From Candidatus Zixiibacteriota bacterium (GTDB lineage Bacteria; Zixibacteria; MSB-5A5; WJJR01): a stretch of 10,917 nt of DNA. How positions within the stretch are numbered: the stretch's first letter is position 1; the number at the start of each line of letters is the position of its first letter. Under the pieces are notes generated by a model. That model ran no database searches and was not told the DNA's origin. It worked only from the letters and a program-made list of their open reading frames with translations. Positions 1-10,917 of this stretch are shown here, one piece after another. The stretch lies in NCBI GenBank assembly GCA_036170655.1, contig JAVHPP010000084.1, positions 1 through 10,917 of the forward strand. The letters run 5' to 3'. Made by a program: the position numbers and the translations under genes.

Positions 1-18
1 AGGCGCTATAGCACAAAG

Positions 19-107
19 CGGAGGCCAACCCACGGCAAGCCGTGGGGCACCGGGCTGTGAAGCGCGCGAGCGAACGGAGGCCAACCCACGGCAAGCCGTG
101 GGGCACC
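19..107. repeat. Two identical 33-bp direct repeats (19-51, 75-107) each containing a perfect palindrome; REP-like element
   Basis: CGGAGGCCAACCCACGGCAAGCCGTGGGGCACC occurs twice with a 56-bp period; the core CCCACGGC-AA-GCCGTGGG is a perfect inverted repeat; degenerate third copy at 2707-2735. Confidence 0.85.
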
Positions 108-146
108 CGGGCTTGATCCGTGCCCCAAATCATGCTCTGTTTTCTC

Positions 147-175
147 TTGTGCTGGGTACCGTGATTAGGTAAAAT
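147..175 (+). promoter_or_regulatory. Putative sigma70-type promoter of rpsA
   Basis: TTGTGC (147-152) - 17 nt - TAAAAT (170-175), 70 nt upstream of the rpsA start codon. Confidence 0.7.
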
Positions 176-180
176 GCAAA

Positions 181-245
181 GCTTTTCGCCTTTGGCGAAA
201 AGCCGCCCGCCGGGCGAATGTTAGCGTACCAGGAGGAATACCAGA
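181..245 (+). promoter_or_regulatory. Structured 5' leader of rpsA with Shine-Dalgarno
   Basis: Perfect 10-bp hairpin GCTTTTCGCC-TTT-GGCGAAAAGC (181-203), second hairpin CGCCC-GCC-GGGCG (204-216), AGGAGG at 231-236, 9 nt before GTG 246. Confidence 0.6.
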
Positions 246-2312
246 GTGAACCCCAACCCCAAACCCGCCACGGGTGATACTGTGCCCGCTGGCGAAAGCA
301 AGGGCAAGAAGACCAAATCCACGTCCAAGAAGGCTGCCGAGACGGTCGTCGTCACGACCAGCAAGAAACGCAAGATCACTGAAGTCAAGACCGTCGGTCT
401 TGCGCAGGACGTGGCCGTACGCCGGACCAAGTCGGTCAAGCGCGCCGAACGCGCTCCGGGTCTGACCACGTCTGCGGCCCCCGTAATGGGCTCCGAAATC
501 TATGCCCCGGACCTCGATGACGAAGAATACTCAAGCGCGGAGTACGAGAACATGCTGACGCTCTACAACGAGACCGTCGGCAATATCCGCGAGGGCGAGA
601 TCGCCAAGGGACGGGTCATGGCCGTGGGTCACGACGAAGTCGTGGTCGACGTCGGTTTCAAATCCGAGGGCCTGATTCCGATCAGCGAATTTGGCGAATC
701 GCCCACTGTCAAAGTGGGCGACGAGATCGAAGTCTTTCTCGATGCCGTGGAAGATCAGAATGGCCAGCTTCTGCTCTCCAAGCAGAAAGCAGATTTCATG
801 CGTGTGTGGGACCGGATCCGTGCGGCCCACGAACAGGGCGTTCTGGTCGAAGGACGGCTGGTCCGCCGCATCAAGGGCGGCATCGTGGTGGACCTGTTCG
901 GCGTCGAGGCGTTTCTCCCGGGCTCGCAGGTTGCGTTGCGCCAGGTGCCCGATTTTGACACGCTGATTGGCCAGACGCTTCCCATGAAAATCATCAAACT
1001 CAACAAGTCGCGCCGCAACATCGTGGTCTCGCGCCGCGCCGTCCTCGAAACGGAGCGCGATGAACTGCGCAACCACCTGCTGGCGGAAATCGCCATCGAC
1101 CAGATCCGCCGCGGCGCCGTGAAAAATATCACCGACTTTGGCGTATTTATCGACTTGGGCGGCGTCGACGGCCTCCTGCATATCACCGATATGTCATGGG
1201 GCCGCATTCGTCATCCATCGGAACTTGTGGCCGTGGGTGACGAGATCGATGTGAAAATCCTCGATTTCGACGTCAAGACCAACCGCATATCGTTGGGTCT
1301 GAAGCAGCTCACCCCGTATCCCTGGGACGATGTGGACCGCAAGTTTCCGATCGGCGCCCGGGTACAGGGGAAAGTCGTCTCGATCACCGATTATGGCGCC
1401 TTCGTCGAATTGGAACGGGGTGTCGAAGGCCTGGTTCACATCTCCGAGATGTCTTGGACCCACCATGTGCGGCATCCGTCGAAAATCATGCAGATCGGCG
1501 ACATGATCGAAGCGATGGTGTTGAATGTCGACAAAGAGCACCAGAAAATCTCGCTCGGCATCAAGCAATTGGAGCCCGATCCCTGGTCGACCGTCGAACA
1601 GAAGTTCCCCGTGGGCTCGCGCCACGAAGGACGCGTGCGCAACCTGACCGCGTTCGGCGCCTTCATCGAACTCGAAGAAGGCATTGACGGCCTCGTGCAC
1701 ATCTCCGATCTGTCGTGGACACGGCGCGTGCAGCATCCGTCGGAGGTCATGAAGAAGGGCGACAAGGTGCCCATCGTTGTGCTCCATGTCGATCCCGAGA
1801 ATCGCAAGATTTCCCTCGGACACAAGCAGGTCTTCGACGATCCCTGGCCGATGTATCACGAACGCTTCCGCGTCGGCAACGAAAAACAGGGTAAGGTCGT
1901 CCGCATGCTCGACCGGGGCGTGGTGGTCGATCTGGATGACGAGGTCGAGGGCTTCGTTCCGCTCAACCAGCTCGGCAAGAAAGATATCGAGAAACCAGAC
2001 CAGTCCTTCCATGTCGGCGAGATTCTCAACCTGCGTGTGATCGAATTCGATCCGACCAACCGGCGGATTGTTCTGTCGGTCGACGCCTACTACAAGGACA
2101 GGGACCGCACCGAACTGGAGGAATTCATCGCTGCGCATCCAATCGTCAAGACCACGATGGCCGATGCCGCTGGTGCCGAGAAGGTCATGGATGCCGGCGC
2201 CGATGATACGGCTGTTGCTTCGGTCAGCGAGTCGGCCGAAAGCGATACCGAGGACGCAACGGAAGCGCCCGGCCCGGCTACAGATGACGCAGTAGAGGAT
2301 GTCGACGCCTGA
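246..2312 (+). CDS. rpsA: 30S ribosomal protein S1 (bS1), 688 aa
   Basis: Six tandem S1/OB repeats with hallmark motifs (VDVGFKSEGLIP, AFLPGSQV, KNITDFGVFIDLGGVDGLLHITDMSWGR, DYGAFVELERGVEGLVHISEMSW, FGAFIELEEGIDGLVHISDLSW); GTG start with strong SD. Confidence 0.98.
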   Translation: MNPNPKPATGDTVPAGESKGKKTKSTSKKAAETVVVTTSKKRKITEVKTVGLAQDVAVRRTKSVKRAERAPGLTTSAAPVMGSEIYAPDLDDEEYSSAEYENMLTLYNETVGNIREGEIAKGRVMAVGHDEVVVDVGFKSEGLIPISEFGESPTVKVGDEIEVFLDAVEDQNGQLLLSKQKADFMRVWDRIRAAHEQGVLVEGRLVRRIKGGIVVDLFGVEAFLPGSQVALRQVPDFDTLIGQTLPMKIIKLNKSRRNIVVSRRAVLETERDELRNHLLAEIAIDQIRRGAVKNITDFGVFIDLGGVDGLLHITDMSWGRIRHPSELVAVGDEIDVKILDFDVKTNRISLGLKQLTPYPWDDVDRKFPIGARVQGKVVSITDYGAFVELERGVEGLVHISEMSWTHHVRHPSKIMQIGDMIEAMVLNVDKEHQKISLGIKQLEPDPWSTVEQKFPVGSRHEGRVRNLTAFGAFIELEEGIDGLVHISDLSWTRRVQHPSEVMKKGDKVPIVVLHVDPENRKISLGHKQVFDDPWPMYHERFRVGNEKQGKVVRMLDRGVVVDLDDEVEGFVPLNQLGKKDIEKPDQSFHVGEILNLRVIEFDPTNRRIVLSVDAYYKDRDRTELEEFIAAHPIVKTTMADAAGAEKVMDAGADDTAVASVSESAESDTEDATEAPGPATDDAVEDVDA

Positions 2313-2352
2313 GTTTCGGTACTCAGACGAACAACGTTCATTCGAACACATT

Positions 2353-2390
2353 CCGGGCCGCGGTGATAACACTGCGGCCCGGTTTTCGTT
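2353..2390 (+). terminator. Intrinsic terminator after rpsA
   Basis: 13-bp stem CCGGGCCGCGGTG / CACTGCGGCCCGG (one G-U), loop ATAA, followed by TTTTCGTT, 40 nt after the stop codon. Confidence 0.85.
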
Positions 2391-2619
2391 GATCCAGCGG
2401 CCAGATCATCGTTGCCGAGTGGCTATAGGGTGGTTCTCCGCCACCGCCATCGGGAGAATAGACATTTTCGGCAAAACCAGCCGACTCGCTACTCCTCAAA
2501 AAACGCACGAAATTGACGAAACCGGCCCAGAAACTTGGAACCCGACGTGGGATCGCTTGTTATAAGTCATGTGAGCACAAGGCGGGACATCGCCACCTCC
2601 TTGTCCTGCCGCTGCAATC

Positions 2620-2650
2620 TCCCCGCCCCGCGCTTGTCGTGGGGCGGGGA
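2620..2650. repeat. GC-rich inverted repeat (REP-like or second terminator)
   Basis: TCCCCGCCCCGCG-CTTGT-CGTGGGGCGGGGA, 13-bp stem with one G-U. Confidence 0.6.
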
Positions 2651-2706
2651 TCCCTCCTTTTGAATCCGCTTGGCTCCCCACATTTGCTGTGGATCGTTCC
2701 GAGTAT

Positions 2707-2735
2707 CCAACGGCAAGCCGTGTGGCGCCCCGGCT
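2707..2735. repeat. Degenerate copy of the 19-51/75-107 palindromic repeat
   Basis: CCAACGGCAAGCCGTGTGGCGCCCCGGCT vs CCCACGGCAAGCCGTGGGGCACCCGGGCT. Confidence 0.65.
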
Positions 2736-2739
2736 GTTA

Positions 2740-2760
2740 CGGAATCTCTTGGAGATTCCG
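2740..2760. repeat. Perfect inverted repeat
   Basis: CGGAATCTC-TTG-GAGATTCCG, 9-bp stem. Confidence 0.6.
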
Positions 2761-2785
2761 GACAGACACACGGCATGATTCCACC

Positions 2786-2917
2786 ATGAACATGCGATTT
2801 ATCGTCATCGTGCGCATCGAAGAGGCCACACGGCATGCGGCCTTCGGAGAGGAATATGCCAGCTATGTCTCACGCACACGCCGCTTCGTCCCTTTCTTGT
2901 TCCCCACTTTCCTGTAG
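2786..2917 (+). pseudogene. Probable C-terminal remnant of an isoprenylcysteine carboxyl methyltransferase (ICMT)/PEMT-family membrane methyltransferase
   Basis: 43-aa peptide MNMRFIVIVRIEEATRHAAFGEEYASYVSRTRRFVPFLFPTFL matches the family C-terminal signature EE-x(6)-FGEEY-x-x-Y-x(3)-T-x-RF-x-P; the upstream in-frame sequence shows none of the expected TM helices or RHPxY motif. Confidence 0.6.
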
Positions 2918-2968
2918 CAGAGTCCCTCATGGGCGCGGCATGGGCGGGACGCCCATGCTACTGGAAAG
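2907..2968. repeat. Nested palindromic GTAG-type REP-like element
   Basis: Inner palindrome GCATGGGCG-GGA-CGCCCATGC (2938-2958), read on the minus strand as GTAG+CATGGGCGTCCCGCCCATG; outer arms CTTTCCTGTAGCA (2907-2919) / TGCTACTGGAAAG (2956-2968) match 12/13. Confidence 0.6.
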
Positions 2969-3042
2969 GGATCCCCAGTGCCCACGATCGACGGGCACAA
3001 GGGCCTATGCTACACAATACATAAATTTCGAGTACTGCCGTT

Positions 3043-3648
3043 CTACCCTGTGATCGTCGAGCCCGCGATGTGCCCCATCCCAATAATGGCCGATGTCACC
3101 AGCCCAATCGCAACCCACACGACAATCGAGACGAGGATCACGACAATCAGGTAAGGGACCACTTTCTCCGGCGGCGTCTTCATCACCGGTGTGAGACCCA
3201 AGTACGCCAAGTACAACCCGTACAAGCCAACGAAGATGGTCAGGATGCCAAGGTAGGGGATCAAGTTGAGCACACCCGCCACCCAGACCGGCGCCTGAGA
3301 ATAGGCGACCAGTTTCAGCGCCTGCGTCAAGTCCCCGCTTGACTGAAAGTTCGGCGCCAGTTTCTCCACAATCAGCGCGGTCACCCAGACCCCGATCAGG
3401 GTGAGAATGTACCCCACGATCAGCGACGTGAGTAAAAGCCCGATTGCGGGACGATATGTGACGTTCAAGATTGGAATATGCTGTCCGAAGATCAGCAAGT
3501 TGATGAATGTGCAGATCGGCGCGATGGTCGCCAGCAGAACAATGAACCCGCTGTACAACGATCCGACCGTGGCGGTCTCGGCCGCAATGACCGGCCATTC
3601 TTCCTTGGGGCGAAGCGCAATGTTCGTCACCCGATTGACAAGATTCAT
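3043..3648 (-). CDS. Yip1 family membrane protein, 201 aa
   Basis: Typical bacterial Yip1 pattern (RVTNIALRPKEEWPVIAAE...LAPNF...QALKLVAYSQAPVWVAG...LYGLYLAYLGL..VMK.PPEK), ~5 TM helices; ATG 3648 preceded by AAGGAGGG (3660-3653), preferred to the ORF-track start at 3738. Confidence 0.9.
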   Translation of the reverse strand: MNLVNRVTNIALRPKEEWPVIAAETATVGSLYSGFIVLLATIAPICTFINLLIFGQHIPILNVTYRPAIGLLLTSLIVGYILTLIGVWVTALIVEKLAPNFQSSGDLTQALKLVAYSQAPVWVAGVLNLIPYLGILTIFVGLYGLYLAYLGLTPVMKTPPEKVVPYLIVVILVSIVVWVAIGLVTSAIIGMGHIAGSTITG

Positions 3649-3814
3649 CGAACCCTCCTTTCGATAAGATCCTCTGATTGTCTCATTCCGTGACGAAATG
3701 ACCCAGGACCCGAACGGCTTGTCAAGATTAATATGCAAAATCGGGACTCCTCTCCCCGGTTGGGGGGGAGTGCTGGGACGAGAGGAAAAAGTGGCGCCGG
3801 ATGATCCCGGCCCG

Positions 3815-4186
3815 TCACTGTCCGCGGAACTTGAGCCGGTCGCCGTATTCGGCGATCAGGTCTCTGCGGATCTCCTCGCCTTTCTTGCCGGCGGCGAGCT
3901 CGGCCTTGATCTTGTCTTTGATTCCGTGCGCCGTCGGGCAGTGGCAGTTGGCGAGCACGGCCTGCACAGTGTCGGTTCCCGGACAGCGGAATCCAGCTTC
4001 AATCCATGCGTCTTTGGCTTCGAGATCGTGAGGGCAGTAGAACTGGCCCGGCTGGGTGGCGGCTGTCAGCGCCGCCGTGGTAGGTTGGTTGTGCTGGCCA
4101 ATCCAATACCCGCCGATGAACCCCACCAGTAGCCCCACCAGCGCCATCAAGACAGCGTTGACCAGCGTGCTTTTCGATCCGTTCAT
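3815..4186 (-). CDS. Small membrane-anchored CcmH/CycL-like Cys-His protein, paralog 2 (123 aa)
   Basis: N-terminal TM helix, then FRCP...LANCHCPTAHGIKDKIKAELAAGKKGEEIRRDLIAEYG, resembling the CcmH helical bundle (LRCxxC...A..MR..I...L..G.S.EEI......YG). Start at ATG 4186 supported by TAAGGAGG 5 nt upstream. Confidence 0.75.
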   Translation of the reverse strand: MNGSKSTLVNAVLMALVGLLVGFIGGYWIGQHNQPTTAALTAATQPGQFYCPHDLEAKDAWIEAGFRCPGTDTVQAVLANCHCPTAHGIKDKIKAELAAGKKGEEIRRDLIAEYGDRLKFRGQ

Positions 4187-4216
4187 TTCAACCTCCTTAC
4201 GAGGGGACATTCGACT

Positions 4217-4573
4217 TCACGTTGTCTTGCGCAATTGCGCGCCATATTCCTTGATCAGTTCCTCACGAATCACGGAGCCGTCTTTTCCCAGTTGCAATTC
4301 TTCTTTGATCTTGGTCTTGATCTTGTGTGCTTCATCGCAGTGACACGTCAGGAGAGGATCCTGACAGGCGGGGGCCGGGCAGCTGAATCCTGCGATGATG
4401 TACTCGTCGGCAGCGGAGAGCTCAAAGGGACAGGGCGGCGCCACACCGGGTGCGGCCGTCACCGCGATCGGACCCTGCTGGCCGAACAGAAAACCGGCAA
4501 CGAAACCCACGAGCAGACCCGCCAGAATGATGAGAATAGGGCTGACACGCCCGGTTTTTTCCTTGTCACCCAT
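4217..4573 (-). CDS. Small membrane-anchored CcmH/CycL-like Cys-His protein, paralog 1 (118 aa)
   Basis: N-terminal TM helix, then CPFEL...AGFSCPAPACQDPLLTCHCDEAHKIKTKIKEELQLGKDGSVIREELIKEYG; aligns end to end with 3815-4186; SD AGGAGA; starts 4 nt after the upstream stop. Confidence 0.78.
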   Translation of the reverse strand: MGDKEKTGRVSPILIILAGLLVGFVAGFLFGQQGPIAVTAAPGVAPPCPFELSAADEYIIAGFSCPAPACQDPLLTCHCDEAHKIKTKIKEELQLGKDGSVIREELIKEYGAQLRKTT

Positions 4574-4577
4574 GTTC

Positions 4578-7139
4578 CTATTCTCCTGTGACCGGGTTGC
4601 CCTGTGACGCCTGACCGGCAGTCGTCTGTGGCCACGCCAAAGGGTCGTGCATATACGACATCAGACGGTACTCGAACTGGCTGATCGTATTTTGGATCGG
4701 ATTGGGTACCATGGCGGTATATCCCATCGTCTTTCGTTCGAAAAGATGTGAGTTGGCAAATGCAATCACCTGACCGGCGCTGGCCTTTTTCAGCGCGCAA
4801 CTGACGGAACCGTCTGGTATTGTCACCAACGGTTCGCCCCCGATGACACGCCCGCCGCCTTCCCACAGCGTGTTCTTGAGGTCATTTCCGATCCCTGCCT
4901 GCGGGGCGATCGGCCGCAGATCGAAAGACAGACCGAACTGCTGGAGCAACGGTCCGGAGGTTGAGATCCTGTTCGAAGGATCGTCGAAGATGTAGAGTGT
5001 GCCGCCGTGCTCCACGAAGTCTTTTAACCGCTGGAGCTCGTCTGGATCGAACGGAGTCACCGGATCAATGATGATCTGCCCGCCCGGTTGGTCCATGGCT
5101 TCCTCCAGTGTCGGGAACTTGCGCGGTACGACACCCACCCGCTGTGTCCAGAGAAAGAATGTGCTGAAATCTTTGTCTGGCTCGCGCGCCAGACGCAACT
5201 CGGGGATGAAGAAACGCGAGTGCTCACTCTCGAAATTCAGTTGCGCGAATGGCATGCGCGCCGTCGGCAAAGGGTAATTCTTCTGGTTGATCGCCTCAAA
5301 CAGCCGCGACGATCCGGCAAATGTCAGGAGCGAAACCGCCGCCAGCCAGACCCACCCTTCGAGGCCAAACCCCGTGGCCGACACCATCGCGACCAGTAGC
5401 GCGATCGTGCCAAACAGCAACGTGAGCATGCGCCAGTAGGGAAAGCTTTCCTTCCGGTTCACATACTCGGCCAGCCCCAGTGCCAGCTCCGGCTTGCCGG
5501 GGACAAACATGAAGAAATTCGACCACAACGTCGAGTCACCAAAGGACACGACACGGCCCTTGCCGCAACGGACCGACAACGACAGTGAAAAGATGCCGAA
5601 CCGATAAGATGTTTGCCCCGACCGTTCCGGGAAGAAGTTGCGCTGTGTATAGTCGGCCGGCAGGGTCTTGATGTCCTTTTCCGTGATAATTGATCGTGCC
5701 GACAAATCGCCGTACATGCTGCATGGCCCGCCAAATAGGAAGTCAGCCGGCATGTTTTGCGCGACCGGGTGCGGCATCAGGCCGGGCTTCCGATGCAGAT
5801 TGAGGTCGCCCGTTTTCAGTTCATAGACAATGTCGGCAATGTAGCGAATGCCAAATCGTGTGGCGATGGGGTTGAGAAATGTTGCGTATCCGAAAACGTT
5901 GGTATGTTCGCCGATGAGAATCAATCCCCCGCCGTTCTGAACGTAATCATACACGGCATCGACTTCCTTCGGTGTGTACGGCGACGTGGGCACCTTTAAG
6001 ACGAGGATGTCGTACTTCGACAGCAGGGCCGGTGTGAGTGTGTCGTGCCCGCGATCCATCTGGTAAAACTTATTCCAGTACTCGGCAAGACAGTAGAAGT
6101 TGTACGTGGATTGCTGACCGTACCAGACCGTGTCAAACGGCATTTCCGTCCACTCCCAATCGGAGTGGAACTCGTCGATCAGCATGCGTCCGGCCTTTCG
6201 TTCGCCCGCCGGGTGGTATCCTTCGTACGCGGTCCACGCATATATGCCGAGCGCAGCCGCAACAATGGTTACAGCCAGCCGGCGCAATGGCGCGCGCCGC
6301 TGCAAAATCGCCGGGTCCTCCGGCTTCAAGGGGATCGTCCCGGGCGTGCGGACAGAATGGGTCAGACCTTGGAGAAAGATGCCAACTGGCCAGACCGTCC
6401 ACGCGAAAAGCGATGGATCCCAATATGTGGCGGCAAATCCGTTCTGGTGATAGTCCCAGAGCAGAACGGCCGCATAACGGGCAAACGCGAAAAGGGCAAC
6501 GATCAGTCCGCCCGTGAACACCGAACGAGCCCTGAGCTTGCCGGTCACCGCCAGCGCAATCAATCCCATGAAGATTTGCGTGAAGACCAGGAGCCCCATG
6601 TTGTTCAGGGTCGGAACCGAGTGATACAGACGATCCGTGGCGAACAGGTGGATACCGTCAGCCAACCCGGCGGCGTTGATGCCGAAAAGCCGGAATGCGG
6701 CGCTGAGGATTGCCGTGGGGACCGCCGTGCCGTGCCCCCGTGGACCGAGGTAGACAAAGTACAGATATGCTCCGACCACCTGCATCAGCCCGATTGTTCC
6801 CGCAACAAGAAGGCCGTCTCCCAACCCATGGCCAGTCCGCGTCTTTCCGGCCACCACCATCACAATCGCCGCTATGCCGATCAGAATCGTCGCAGAATAT
6901 GGGATGTCCGCATTCGCGAAGAAGCCGAAGAGGACGAGCGCAACGGCGGGAATGAGTGCACGCCACGGCCATCGTCTCGGCGTGTCATGCTGAGAGCCAG
7001 CCCACCCTGCCACCAGGATCACGAGTGTGCCAATACCAGCCAACCAGAGGAACTTCGTCGGCAATGCGTCGGGATTGGGCCAGAGAAACAGCCAGCCGAT
7101 CGACCAGCAAACCATGCCCCAGATGTACAGACGTTTCAT
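4578..7139 (-). CDS. Large polytopic membrane protein with two DUF4350/GIFT-like (class I glutamine amidotransferase-like fold) domains, 853 aa
   Basis: Long ORF; ~300-aa hydrophobic N-terminus; domain 1 (MLIDEFH...LTPALLSKYDILVL..P..PYTPKEVDAVYDYVQNGGGLILIGEH...GKGRVVSFGDS), TM hairpin, domain 2 (PFDPDELQRLKDFVEHGGTLYIF...GQVIAFANSHLF); ATGA overlap with the upstream gene. CDS is secure, the product is a by-eye call. Confidence 0.8.
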   Translation of the reverse strand: MKRLYIWGMVCWSIGWLFLWPNPDALPTKFLWLAGIGTLVILVAGWAGSQHDTPRRWPWRALIPAVALVLFGFFANADIPYSATILIGIAAIVMVVAGKTRTGHGLGDGLLVAGTIGLMQVVGAYLYFVYLGPRGHGTAVPTAILSAAFRLFGINAAGLADGIHLFATDRLYHSVPTLNNMGLLVFTQIFMGLIALAVTGKLRARSVFTGGLIVALFAFARYAAVLLWDYHQNGFAATYWDPSLFAWTVWPVGIFLQGLTHSVRTPGTIPLKPEDPAILQRRAPLRRLAVTIVAAALGIYAWTAYEGYHPAGERKAGRMLIDEFHSDWEWTEMPFDTVWYGQQSTYNFYCLAEYWNKFYQMDRGHDTLTPALLSKYDILVLKVPTSPYTPKEVDAVYDYVQNGGGLILIGEHTNVFGYATFLNPIATRFGIRYIADIVYELKTGDLNLHRKPGLMPHPVAQNMPADFLFGGPCSMYGDLSARSIITEKDIKTLPADYTQRNFFPERSGQTSYRFGIFSLSLSVRCGKGRVVSFGDSTLWSNFFMFVPGKPELALGLAEYVNRKESFPYWRMLTLLFGTIALLVAMVSATGFGLEGWVWLAAVSLLTFAGSSRLFEAINQKNYPLPTARMPFAQLNFESEHSRFFIPELRLAREPDKDFSTFFLWTQRVGVVPRKFPTLEEAMDQPGGQIIIDPVTPFDPDELQRLKDFVEHGGTLYIFDDPSNRISTSGPLLQQFGLSFDLRPIAPQAGIGNDLKNTLWEGGGRVIGGEPLVTIPDGSVSCALKKASAGQVIAFANSHLFERKTMGYTAMVPNPIQNTISQFEYRLMSYMHDPLAWPQTTAGQASQGNPVTGE

Positions 7140-9517
7140 GATGGACCTGCGCCTTTTCCCCCGGGGGCCTGGGTCTTCGACCCGCCCATGAGGTGTTGTA
7201 TGAGATTCTGGAAGAAGCGCACATTCTCCATGACCAGCAGTTCGTTCTGACCTTCGAGGTTTCGGTTATACAGGAATTGCGAATCAGCAATCACGACCAT
7301 CCCGCCACGTCCGTGACGCGCCACTTTGACAACCGGATAGCCGAGGGCGGTCACGAGCGTCTCGATGTTCGGTCCATCACCGGTCAGTGGATAGGCGTCG
7401 GCCATCTTCACGGAATCGCCAAACGCCGTGCCCATCGCCTCTCCGAGCGGAACATTCTCCATCGCGAGTCCAAAGCGGTTGAGCAGGTCATCCACACGCG
7501 TGTGCAGGTTCCACCCGGCCGACACAATCAGCCACCCGCCATTGGCCGTGTACCGTTCGAATCGGTCAATCGTCTCCGAAGACACCGCCACGGTGGGGGC
7601 GAAAAGCACATAGACAGCGGCCGAGTCAGAGTCGATCTGCGACGGAGAATCAGCGTATCGTGGCGCCAAGCCATTGCGCATGAGGTTGAATTCGAGCCCG
7701 CCAATCGATTGTGGCTCCCATGCCATGCCGTCGAAGAACGGGCTTTGCCCCAAATCGATGAGCGCCTGCCGGTACGAAGTCGATGCCCAAGTCCTGCTTT
7801 CGGGTCCCGGCACCGCCATCCAGAACGCGACACTAACAACCGGCAAGAGTAGAGCAGACCACAGCAGACATGGTCGCCCCTTTGAACGAACGACCAGGAC
7901 CGTCCCGCCGACGCCGACGAGCCATGCCAGCATCCAACTGCGCCACCGATCGAGAATCCGTCCGATCCCCCGGTTGGCCAGCCAGTGCATCGAACGATCG
8001 ACCAGGGCGTGCGTCCGGGTGAGAGATCCGTTCTGATATGGCGATGTGTCGCCATACAGCATCGCCCGTCCCCGTCCCCAGTGTGCGCCGGCGACGAGGA
8101 CAATGTCGCCGAGCGATTCACCCGGATCGTAGGCGAGATTGCCGAGGAACGAACGGTTCTTGTTATTGAGATCACCGGGATCGGAAAATGCGCCGCGCCC
8201 GACCAGAATTGGCTCGCCGTGTGGCCCGGGATCCACCGAGGCGCCGAGCCAGAGTTCGCCGTCCATCACCCCGCCGGAGCGCGCCACGGGATGGAACAAG
8301 TAACTCTTCTCCGAGACCCAGCTCCGTCGCACGGGAACAGCCGTATCGAAATTCACTGACAAGCCGCACGGCGCCAGAAGATCGTTGGTGGGCTCACGGA
8401 TGGCATCAGTCCCCGTGTGATCCGCCAGGATCAGAAGTCCGCCGCCCCGGTCAACAAAATCCCAGACCATCTGCCGTTCGTTGACTGGCAGCTTTTTCAA
8501 TAGGTTGGCGATGATGATGACATCAACAGAATCGAGAATACCCGGTGTCAGATCCGTGTTATAGGTAATGTACCCGGAGGCGGCGAGGTGTGTCGGCAGG
8601 AATCCGAACATCCCCCCGGAACGGTCTCCGTATTGACCGTGACGCGGCACCGTCATATCGAGAGTCTTCTTATCAAGGAACAAAACGCGGATCGGGCGAT
8701 TCGTGTACGAACCGGCTCCGGCAACGATGAACGCTGCCATCAGCGCACCGATCGCCACCCATGTTACCCGTCGATTCCCGGGCACGGCTGACGGGGTGAC
8801 GCCATCCTCCGCCGGCAACGCTTTGCGATACAACGCCACCACGGCGGTGATGAACAGCAGATAGGCGCCCGGCATGTCCAAATGCGGCGTCTGCGAGATG
8901 GGCGCCACTTTGCCCACCAATCCCAGCAGGGCTGGCGCCATCCATATATAGATGATGCGGCCTGCCTCCAAGAGCACGATCCCAAGAACAGCCCAAGTCC
9001 AGCGTCGTTCTGTTGCCGCGACAGTCACACCAAGGATCGCACAAACGCCAAGGAGCAAAAGATCAACCGCCGAAGCCGATGGCCCCAGCGACAACGGTTT
9101 GACCATCACGCCCGTGATCACCTGCGTGTAGCCGAATGACCACTGCGACATCAGGTGGTAGAGAGGGGGGAGCATGAAGAATATGGTCCACCAAAGCCCG
9201 TACAGAATCCCAGTGAGCACGACCGCAGAGTTTTTCCCGCGATTCTCGGGGACTGTGTAGCGGTCAAATGCCCAGACCGCCGCCGTGACCATCGCGATCT
9301 TGAGGGGTGGATCCGCCCACGCGACCAGACCGACCGCCAGCGCCCACGATGACCAGCGCAAGAGCCAGTTGATCTTCTTTCCCCACGAAGGAACAGATGG
9401 ACAGCCAAGCCAGAAAAACCCCAGCAAGATGGCCATCAGAAAAGCATAGACCGGGTCACGGAAGTCGCCCACCGCGCGTGTTGCCACTGCCAGGACAGCA
9501 AGAAACCAAAAAATCAT
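7136..9517 (-). CDS. Large polytopic membrane protein with two DUF4350/GIFT-like domains, 793 aa; distant paralog of 4578-7139
   Basis: Same architecture: hydrophobic N-terminal ~270 aa, domain 1 (LTPGILDSVDVIII...VWDFVDRGGGLLILADHT...GRGRAMLYGDTS), TM hairpin, domain 2 (ALIDLGQ...YTANGGWLIVSAG...GRGGMVVIADSQFLYNRNLE). Confidence 0.8.
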   Translation of the reverse strand: MIFWFLAVLAVATRAVGDFRDPVYAFLMAILLGFFWLGCPSVPSWGKKINWLLRWSSWALAVGLVAWADPPLKIAMVTAAVWAFDRYTVPENRGKNSAVVLTGILYGLWWTIFFMLPPLYHLMSQWSFGYTQVITGVMVKPLSLGPSASAVDLLLLGVCAILGVTVAATERRWTWAVLGIVLLEAGRIIYIWMAPALLGLVGKVAPISQTPHLDMPGAYLLFITAVVALYRKALPAEDGVTPSAVPGNRRVTWVAIGALMAAFIVAGAGSYTNRPIRVLFLDKKTLDMTVPRHGQYGDRSGGMFGFLPTHLAASGYITYNTDLTPGILDSVDVIIIANLLKKLPVNERQMVWDFVDRGGGLLILADHTGTDAIREPTNDLLAPCGLSVNFDTAVPVRRSWVSEKSYLFHPVARSGGVMDGELWLGASVDPGPHGEPILVGRGAFSDPGDLNNKNRSFLGNLAYDPGESLGDIVLVAGAHWGRGRAMLYGDTSPYQNGSLTRTHALVDRSMHWLANRGIGRILDRWRSWMLAWLVGVGGTVLVVRSKGRPCLLWSALLLPVVSVAFWMAVPGPESRTWASTSYRQALIDLGQSPFFDGMAWEPQSIGGLEFNLMRNGLAPRYADSPSQIDSDSAAVYVLFAPTVAVSSETIDRFERYTANGGWLIVSAGWNLHTRVDDLLNRFGLAMENVPLGEAMGTAFGDSVKMADAYPLTGDGPNIETLVTALGYPVVKVARHGRGGMVVIADSQFLYNRNLEGQNELLVMENVRFFQNLIQHLMGGSKTQAPGGKGAGPS

Positions 9518-9704
9518 ACCGGGCTCATATCTCCTGGGACAAAATCTCCATTATGAATGATACACTGTCGCCGCCTGCGGAGAAAGTGAAAACCTGGGTC
9601 AACTTCACGATTCAAGTGAATAAGAGCATCTATTAAAATGGAGTCAACATACTCAATGATGGTGGGGAGCGATCTGGATCAGTCAGAAGGCCATCAATTC
9701 CGAG

Positions 9705-9777
9705 GGAGGGCGAGGCTCCTGCCGAGCCTCTTTTCGGTGGATGACAAAAATGAGGCTCGGCAGGAGTCTCACCCTCC
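9705..9777. repeat. Long inverted repeat (REP doublet/REPIN-like)
   Basis: GGAGGGCGAGGCTCCTGCCGAGCCTC (9705-9730) and GAGGCTCGGCAGGAGTCTCACCCTCC (9752-9777): 24/26 complementary with a 21-nt spacer; the left arm has an internal palindrome GAGGCTC..GAGCCTC. Confidence 0.8.
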
Positions 9778-9907
9778 TATCATGCCCATCGGTCCCATCG
9801 CTGCGCCGTCAAGATGCAATCATCGTCGCTCCGTGCGGTCATAACATGTTGCGCCGCTGCAACCTAAAGAAATTGAGCGCGAAACTGAAAAACATTGTCA
9901 TCTCCAC

Positions 9908-9935
9908 TTGACAAAAAACGACCCCAGTTTATATT
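9908..9935 (+). promoter_or_regulatory. Putative strong sigma70-type promoter for the Thr-Cys repeat gene
   Basis: Consensus TTGACA (9908-9913) - 16 nt - TATATT (9930-9935), with A-rich upstream sequence. Confidence 0.7.
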
Positions 9936-10045
9936 GCGATTTGGTAGGCCGAAGTCTTTTCGGTTTTTTGTGACTTGTACTGAAAACATTCACAGTTCCA
10001 AGGGTCAGTTAAATGTAGTCCAGTTAAGAGTTAAGGAGGCGGCTC

Positions 10046-10917
10046 ATGACGCGACGTAGAAGTGAGGTGGCACCGGTTCGAACTAAGATTGTTCGATGTT
10101 GCCGATGTTGCCTCAGACACGGTTTGTTCCTCGTTGCTTTCACCACCGTACTTGCCCTGTCCTTTTCGCAACTCGCTTTAGCGGTATCTGATCCCCAGCC
10201 ATCACCGCTCTTCAAGCAGAGCTTGAAGACCTCGATCGAGAAGTTTGTCGAGCGAGATGCCCCGCAAGCCACATCTGCCACCAACAAGACAGCAGGCAGC
10301 GGTGGGACGGTTGCGATGGCAGCGTCACCGGCGGATGTCGATTCGATGCCCACGATCGTAGGCTATCCGACTTGCGGGTCGGCGACCTGCTCTGACCAGA
10401 ATACGTGTCCGGGACATCCAACCTGTCAGGGGACAGTAACCTGCTTCCCTGTCCCTACCTGTGCTGGCACTAATACATGCATAGGATTCACAACCTGCGC
10501 GGGCAGTACGTCATGCAACGCCGCCGGTGGCACGGCCACCTGCGCCGGGACAGCGACTTGCGACGCCAGCAACACGTGTCCCGGTTCGATGACTTGCTCG
10601 GGAACACCGACTTGCAAGGCCGCGGCCACTTGTCCGGGCGCGGAGACCTGTGTCGGTACGGCCACATGCGGCGATGGGCCGACCTGTCCGAACAATCCGA
10701 CCTCGCCGGGTTCGCCGACGTGCGAGGGAACCACAACCTGCGGTCATGCCGGGTTCCCGACCTGCGACAATGCGCCGACATGCTCGCAGTCGTCTACCTG
10801 CGTAGGGTCGATGACTTGCACCCAGGTAACCTGTGTGGCCGCGGCGACGTGCAGCGGGAGCGCAACCTGCAGCTGGTCCAGCACCTGCCATGGTTCTCCA
10901 ACGTGCGTCGATCAGAC
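10046..10917 (+). CDS. Exported Thr-Cys hexapeptide-repeat protein (partial, runs off window; not in ORF track)
   Basis: TAAGGAGG (10032-10039) 6 nt before ATG 10046; frame open for 290 codons to window end: MTRRRSEVAPVRTKIVRCCRCCLRHGLFLVAFTTVLALSFSQLALA-VSDPQ...MPTIVGYPTCGSATCSDQNTCPGHPTCQGTVTCFPVPTCAGTNTCIGFTTC...HGSPTCVDQ; basic n-region, hydrophobic h-region, ALA cleavage motif at residues 44-46. Confidence 0.9.
   Translation, partial: MTRRRSEVAPVRTKIVRCCRCCLRHGLFLVAFTTVLALSFSQLALAVSDPQPSPLFKQSLKTSIEKFVERDAPQATSATNKTAGSGGTVAMAASPADVDSMPTIVGYPTCGSATCSDQNTCPGHPTCQGTVTCFPVPTCAGTNTCIGFTTCAGSTSCNAAGGTATCAGTATCDASNTCPGSMTCSGTPTCKAAATCPGAETCVGTATCGDGPTCPNNPTSPGSPTCEGTTTCGHAGFPTCDNAPTCSQSSTCVGSMTCTQVTCVAAATCSGSATCSWSSTCHGSPTCVDQ

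Follow-up and report, generated by a model that had tools for sequence, protein, structure and literature searches.

What is a protein for in which nearly every sixth residue is Cys and nearly every Cys follows a Thr, and which genes act on it? We examined this question for a repeat gene in a 10,917-nucleotide stretch of Candidatus Zixiibacteriota bacterium DNA (assembly GCA_036170655.1, contig JAVHPP010000084.1, positions 1 to 10,917), referred to here as the window.

The repeat gene and its product

Translation from the ATG at 10046 gave 29 Cys at residues 110–287, 28 of them directly after Thr and one after Ser, exactly as counted in the initial annotation. Spacings are mostly 6 residues (23 cases), with two of 5, one of 8 and one of 9, as had been noted, plus one of 12 at a unit that carries Thr-Ser instead of Thr-Cys (TC). 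The 28 TC pairs compare with 16 or fewer in 100,000 composition shuffles. All four Thr codons and both Cys codons are used, which bears out the earlier remark that codons differ between units while the pattern is held at the protein level. Recent DNA slippage was considered as the origin of the array and was ruled out by the mixed codons together with the protein-level conservation.

The ORF had been described as hidden, a label that does not suit a gene with a sigma-70-like promoter site (TTGACA-16-TATATT, 9908–9935, + strand; a consensus match only, at 11 of 12 positions) and a ribosome-binding site, AAGGAGG, at 10033–10039 (+). The pattern had also been placed too late, at 10370; it begins with Thr103 (10352–10354, +), an opening Thr with no Cys of its own, 7 residues ahead of the first array Cys, Cys110. 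The window part of the xxxxTC array, with its 29 Cys, spans 10352–10917 (+) and runs on beyond a gap.

Inspection and hydropathy predict a Sec signal peptide at residues 1–46 (10046–10183, +), with a basic n-region, a hydrophobic stretch at 26–40 and an A-L-A site, in keeping with the earlier suggestion of an exported protein. The long n-region (10046–10111) holds the Cys pairs RCCRCC, and Cys is found there in many homologues too. Homologue comparison and modelling identified a conserved leader or docking helix, DPxPSPLFxxSLxxSIEKF, at residues 49–70 (10190–10255, +), followed by a variable linker to the array. AlphaFold2 models residues 54–70 as a helix, with a ten-residue block at pLDDT 74–91. 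A profile of 34 such helices, searched against 1.84 billion representatives, matched 27 sequences: 25 family members (15 with TC arrays, 9 early-ending fragments and one that is arrayless in 382 aa) and two unrelated repeats. The profile gave no match in five distant genomes, in a search run without a positive control.

Where the window stops, the contig has a scaffold gap of 100 Ns. On the far side of it the reading frame adds 541 residues, 83 of them Cys, before a stop at contig position 12643. A single contig, from a second study, spans the gap with 232 bases and keeps the frame, giving a total of 909 aa, and 30 gap bases from another run, read by eye, encode further TC units. A chimeric scaffold was rejected because the second contig bridges the gap in frame. 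The sequenced parts of the whole gene carry 105 array Cys. Among 40 of the 83 differences between strains, 17 coding changes were classified and none alters a TC residue. Taken together, these data support the product of the repeat gene as a real, apparently exported protein conserved at the protein level.

Extending the contig, as proposed earlier, led to the kind of C-terminus that had been guessed at: a dockerin-like double EF-hand domain (contig 12389–12643, +, beyond the window). It shares the duplicated GDxNxDG motif of Type I dockerins, but scores under the Pfam cut-off (PF00404, 12.4 bits against 22.9; PDB match E 0.14) and has extra Cys. Cohesins above cut-off are encoded in all five genomes tested, and a strict GDxNxDG-type pattern found nine dockerin-like proteins in the organism's own genome. 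Besides the repeat protein, eight or more dockerin-like proteins, along with several that have cohesin domains, are thus encoded on its (G000) contigs C56, C61, C88, C93, C125, C147, C167, C178, C41 and C115. Judged from sequence, these proteins may form a cellulosome-like display system in Zixibacteria; we found no paper on Zixibacteria and dockerins in the open-access literature. Across lineages the C-termini of repeat proteins vary, being dockerin-like, FlgD/T9SS-like or a TWGxxK tail.

Elsewhere in the window, an element between genes (9704–9777), a palindrome some 74 bp long, has 74 matches genome-wide with both strands counted and appears REP/MITE-like; contig depth is high here and at contig 12764–12866. 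Ribosomal protein S1 (246–2312) is extended at its N-terminus by about 90 residues rich in Lys and Thr and ends in an acidic tail, as it does in relatives. The last 35 residues of a short ORF at 2513–2917 match the C-terminus of isoprenylcysteine methyltransferase (E 2e-4), possibly as a gene remnant.

A gene pair that accompanies Thr/Cys repeats

Five genes on the − strand lie divergent from the repeat gene. Those homologues of the neighbouring gene that carry an organism name come from Zixibacteria, so the host is probably one as well. Protein A (793 aa, 7136–9517) has a polytopic membrane region and two GIFT/DUF4350 (GATase-like) domains predicted to lie outside the membrane. Protein B (853 aa, 4578–7139) is its paralogue, with an invariant Arg221 in the membrane region and conserved His412, His457 and Cys473. 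Both are likely maturation enzymes. Protein C (118 aa, 4217–4573) is a membrane-anchored, weakly CcmH-like Cys protein (PF03918, E 0.046) seen only in Zixibacteria-type loci, and protein D (131 aa, 3815–4210) is its CcmH-like paralogue (PF03918, E 3.6e-5, under the cut-off). CcmH keeps thiols reduced in cytochrome c maturation. A Yip1-domain membrane protein (3043–3738) follows C/D in several close relatives; its membership in the system is uncertain.

The soluble domains of A and B both match GIFT/DUF4350 (IFT52 5FMR, GldG) at E 2e-7 and 2e-9, and weak matches to OST48_N and a glycosidase trimerisation domain were also obtained. Near-invariant His, Asp, Glu, Asn and Thr residues are many in both proteins (63–69 homologues) and dense in the first soluble domains. 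We place these domains outside because Lys/Arg-rich loops precede the last helix ahead of domain 1, an assignment made by inspection in which some loop values do not discriminate. The membrane regions align weakly with exosortase PF09721 in the register of its catalytic segment (HHalign probability 5–6%, E 0.006–0.008; reversed control E 0.42–0.47), and no PF09721 match to A or B appeared in a Pfam scan. The catalytic triad of exosortases includes a Cys. This Cys is absent from A and B, and a Ser or Thr stands at or beside the aligned site in 65 of 69 A and 61 of 63 B homologues. An ESM Atlas search with the repeat protein and B residues 90–310 gave no usable match and was uninformative.

To see how far the pair travels with such repeats, we scanned GTDB contigs for A and kept the best 79 of 111 loci, whose submitter labels include Zixibacteria, Eisenbacteria, Planctomycetota, Verrucomicrobiota, Thermodesulfobacteriota, Nitrospirota, Bacteroidetes and others. 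Taking as a repeat any run of at least eight Cys with Thr between each pair, 47 of these best 79 loci have a neighbouring Thr/Cys repeat, as do 31 of the 40 with 3 kb on both flanks. As background, the organism's own 2.6 Mb genome holds one such gene, the only array there. The repeat lies within 1 kb of A/B in 41 of the 47 cases. By type, 29 of the 47 are CPxxxTx, 13 xxxxTC, four TxDPxDPxC and one other, and the partners overall go with periods of 4, 6, 7 and about 12 residues. Metagenome B loci, partly from the same organisms as the A set, gave a repeat at 40 of the best 80 of at least 313 loci and at 22 of 29 with 1.5 kb flanks.

Presence across genomes agrees. Of 61 relatives, 15 have A and 17 have the repeat, which is present in every A genome, and neither was found in 43 same-class genomes outside the order. 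Across the order the repeat-protein homologues are 730–1500 aa long and often in tandem. Where A loci without a repeat neighbour were followed up, all five genomes hold a CPxxxT-type match elsewhere. Among 251 genomes of the G068 phylum, B is present in at least 14 (from a stricter first look) and CPxxxT in nine, seven strongly and five with B in the same genome. In seven of the 13 other B genomes of that phylum a Cys plus Thr/Ser repeat adjoins B; one has a Cys-Ser repeat, three carry the repeat elsewhere and two (G289, G298) have an RHS gene instead; an RHS gene also takes the substrate position at a second copy in G185. Strong CPxxxT arrays occur in G113 and G197, in which neither A nor B was found, and G005 (94% complete, 350 contigs) has a TC protein, with A not found. 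A scan of 72 same-strand neighbours revealed no third gene conserved outside Zixibacteria and no conserved glycosyltransferase or sugar-pathway gene; an ABC ATPase and a radical SAM protein (a lysine aminomutase) each occurred once.

A two-gene A/B plus repeat-protein system is well supported by this linkage, and A and B very probably mature these Thr/Cys repeats. The repeat protein is likely a substrate of the pair, predicted to be secreted and dockerin-anchored, with the array as the part acted upon. The SPLF..SL helix is most simply read as docking on the A/B pair, and it is absent from many CPxxxT substrates.

Several loci carry variants. RHS-type proteins of about 2000–2200 aa lie directly upstream of divergent A/B, the usual place of the repeat protein, at L146 (2312–8281), L151 (17671–11387), L152 (18226–11678) and L153 (2095–8469), and three of them end in a hydrophobic helix and basic tail resembling a sorting signal. 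Neighbours at L144 (3240–4754), L145 (12445–11213) and L148 (7212–8216) show C-[ST]-x-G-x-x-C or long Cys-Ser-delimited loops, a spacing closer to beetle antifreeze or to non-overlapping rings. TxDPxDPxC proteins of 1000–1650 aa were seen at L064 (4259–9229), L089 and L099; in L064 the last unit lacks both Thr and Cys. In a planctomycete, a protein with a signal peptide, CEPAT pentapeptide repeats and CCCD motifs (L119, 9261–8617) adjoins an A/B pair. An SPLF/Y..L helix is also present on a DsbA-like protein (L065, 14979–16577) and on TPR proteins (L071, 3568–4554; L154, 12141–11107) encoded within A/B operons.

Polarity of the array and what it favours

Across 26 related proteins the array consensus is C-x-G-[TSA]-x-T-C, with 6-residue spacing in 2989 of about 3600 cases and Gly at +2 in 72%. 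In 3041 inner units the residue before Cys is Thr in 2798, Ser in 234, Cys in eight and Asn in one, and never Val, Ile or Ala. That Ser replaces Thr and Val never does points to elimination of a hydroxyl.

The key result is the polarity of the array, which opens with a Cys-less Thr, one period ahead of the first Cys, and closes with a Thr-less Cys; like A, B and the conserved helix, it had gone unremarked in the initial annotation. Ends were counted in 77 proteins in which TC makes up at least 40–45% of Cys; the L119 repeat and the two query pieces were excluded. Of 69 N-ends, 67 have a Cys-less Thr and one has an outer Thr-less Cys; of 68 C-ends, 54 have a Thr-less Cys, about seven of which may by eye belong to a CxC ahead of the dockerin, and five have a lone Thr. 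In the window protein one TC still comes after the last Thr-less Cys. Within 57 leader-bearing proteins, a long gap follows 101 of 146 Thr-less Cys as against 68 of 4062 TC/SC, and Thr stands exactly at −7 from the next Cys in 136 of 169 long gaps. The CPxxxTx type behaves alike: Thr is at −9, −8 or −7 in 24, 12 and seven of 50 starts, and the last Cys lacks Thr in 17 of 54 compared with 14 of 1900 inner ones. In metagenome substrates Thr lies at −10 to −5 in 56 of 63 starts, and Cys without Thr make up 32 of 68 last against 84 of 1723 other positions. Since kin among the counted sequences are not independent, the raw counts carry the weight and p-values overstate it. A count of Cys with any upstream Thr (4161 of 4208) is nearly trivial and is no evidence. 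Neutral decay of end units is disfavoured because decay would not single out Thr at the N-end but Cys at the C-end.

Thr and Cys are therefore matched in number and offset by one unit, so that each Thr belongs to the next Cys. Exceptions occur inside the arrays, where 64 of 125 internal blocks end in TC/SC and not in a Thr-less Cys, usually before a PxNPTS unit and with one Thr left partnerless; Thr213 of the window is such a block-end Thr. Cys numbers per block are even in 57 and odd in 68 (27 and 30 for clean modules), and this random parity means that Cys are not paired within blocks.

These observations bear first on the leading option of the initial annotation, a disulfide-laced beta-solenoid like the beetle antifreeze proteins, with Thr as a binding ladder. 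A and B, together with the CcmH- and DsbA-like helpers, would then be an oxidative folding station. The antifreeze protein of Tenebrio has paired Cys in 12-residue coils. TxT ladders are needed for its function as such a protein (10.1101/2025.03.18.644030). The array resembles T. molitor 1EZG in having Cys every sixth residue and many Thr and small residues, with a weak profile match (E 0.026), and C-[ST]-x-G-x-x-C variants adjoin A at two loci. However, just 4% of Cys stand in a TCT context, no alternation over 12 residues is seen (lag identities 0.24/0.23/0.25/0.27), Pro reaches 25% and 22% at two positions, Cys parity is random and the same partners serve periods of 4, 6, 7 and about 12 residues. 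The solenoid also leaves the extra opening Thr and extra closing Cys unexplained. An AlphaFold2 model of residues 46–290 has no strands, but at pLDDT 44.5, from a 19-row alignment, it is too poor to weigh either way. The 1EZG match and the neighbours of DsbA and CcmH type keep the solenoid alive, the helix on a DsbA-like protein in one A/B operon suiting disulfide formation, but we do not place it first and consider it unlikely.

Alternatively, A and B could put a lipid-derived group (a sugar, phospho-headgroup or acyl group) on the Thr/Ser hydroxyl, leaving Cys as recognition marks or in disulfides. The O-fucosylation consensus in EGF repeats, C-x4-(S/T)-C, is a familiar case of such spacing. 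This would suit the strict need for a hydroxyl, the membrane domain with its conserved Ser/Thr and Arg, and the GIFT domains with their weak OST48_N and glycosidase trimerisation-domain matches. A per-site adduct does not need an opening Thr without an upstream Cys or a closing Cys without Thr, however, and the lack of a conserved sugar gene among the scanned neighbours is also against it, making it rather improbable to our minds.

Polarity is equally well accounted for if Thr and the next Cys are joined by some other bond, for instance from S to C-alpha or C-gamma or through a relay of esters or thioesters, or if a new fold keeps the two in strict contact without a covalent bond. Radical SAM/SPASM proteins were not found in four of five genomes, though (SPASM PF13186 occurs in one of five, not the organism's own), and the replacement of Thr by Ser and never by Val speaks against such bonds. 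In ranthipeptide Cys-to-Thr links, Thr is fixed to the upstream Cys; in the long gaps described above Thr is tied to the downstream one. We regard these alternatives as very unlikely.

The initial annotation had also offered a metal-thiolate scaffold, which A and B would load or export in the manner of a metallothionein. The very high Cys density would fit, as would the resemblance of B to GldG in 20 of 56 members, GldG being an ABC-transporter accessory. Yet the array has no CxxC or CC clusters, the Thr offset is given no role and no ABC ATPase is conserved nearby (one among 72 neighbours). A metal scaffold accounts for neither the hydroxyl requirement nor the polarity, and we give this reading next to no weight. 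Of the options originally listed, it is the Thr-Cys crosslink that is best supported.

A possible stapling pathway and its relation to known systems

We lean towards the reading that A and B form a thioether between each Thr/Ser and the Cys one unit further on, so that some 100 rings of the (methyl)lanthionine type would interlock. Since A and B are the sole conserved candidates, we propose that they do the stapling once the protein has been exported; the bond chemistry itself is what we infer. After Sec export and signal cleavage the SPLF..SL helix would be exposed and could dock on A/B, on the outward-facing side of the inner membrane. A and B would then make the Thr hydroxyl reactive and remove it, with neither ATP nor tRNA and perhaps by way of a lipid partner and the conserved Ser/Thr of their membrane domains. 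This step is the weakest link, as neither ATP nor tRNA is expected outside the membrane, where the A/B domains lie by prediction, and to our knowledge no GIFT/GATase-like domain acts as a dehydratase or cyclase. A and B would also add the downstream thiol to the dehydrated residue, with the CcmH-like C and D keeping thiols reduced. The product would be a stapled rod, resistant to reduction and proteases, on a cohesin scaffold.

In its most specific form, the proposal makes A and B a hitherto undescribed lanthionine synthetase outside the cytoplasm that uses neither ATP nor tRNA and combines an exosortase-like membrane domain, bearing a Ser/Thr nucleophile, with GATase-like domains. It would work processively, placing tens to about 200 staples per exported protein in Zixibacteria, Planctomycetota, Verrucomicrobiota, Thermodesulfobacteriota and other lineages, and these would be the most thioether-crosslinked proteins known. 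For this form we find belief and doubt evenly balanced. If it is true, thioether stapling would also be a cell-envelope modification of large proteins and not only of small cytoplasmic peptides, the synthetase would be of a type unrelated to known ones, and GIFT/DUF4350 and Cys-less exosortase-like domains would gain their first catalytic role. A further gain would be a tool of just two genes with which secreted proteins could be stapled at different ring sizes. Whatever the chemistry, the two genes and their repeat protein are an unnamed, widespread envelope pathway.

In agreement with the initial annotation, Pfam and NCBIfam hold no family for the array or the repeats of 15 related proteins, and give the A/B pair only generic domains. 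We found no description of an A/B plus repeat system in the open-access literature. The membrane regions of A and B are weakly like those of exosortases/archaeosortases (PF09721), and B likewise has an invariant Arg; unlike exosortases, they are fused to two GIFT domains and their substrates are without PEP-CTERM-like tails. The GIFT/DUF4350 domains of A and B stand out by their many invariant polar residues and their tie to a repeat protein, and no such role is described in the libraries scanned.

Among peptide-modifying systems, linaridins offer one parallel: CypH and CypL are membrane-associated, cofactor-free enzymes. In cypemycin, Thr is dehydrated with no lanthipeptide dehydratase in the cluster (PMC8549060). 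However, linaridins are short linear peptides without Thr-Cys rings, and the A/B members match no HTTM or alpha/beta-hydrolase family.

The remaining comparison is with lanthipeptides. In nisin, rings D and E join Thr23 to Cys26 and Thr25 to Cys28 (PMC6964739), so that an isolated Thr comes first, then a Thr-Cys, then a Cys with no Thr before it. Such one-to-one, interlocked pairing of Ser/Thr with a downstream Cys is also the topology of the arrays, which keep the ring register with half of the internal block ends as exceptions. An N-terminal leader-like element and adjacent dedicated genes are likewise common to both. On the other side, no LanB, LanC or LanM-type cyclase was found with the repeat system in five genomes: LanC-like PF05147 was not found in any of the five (97–100% complete), with a control that rang weakly in two of 14, and LanB PF04738 was not found either, with a silent control search. 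The repeat proteins also differ from lanthipeptides in their signal peptide, in partner domains predicted outside the membrane, and in their up to about 200 units, 200–1700 aa and anchoring domains, and the SPLF..SL helix, unlike a lanthipeptide leader, is found on TPR and DsbA accessory proteins as well. On the thioether reading, the system would be lanthipeptide-like in its working, yet a member of no defined class.
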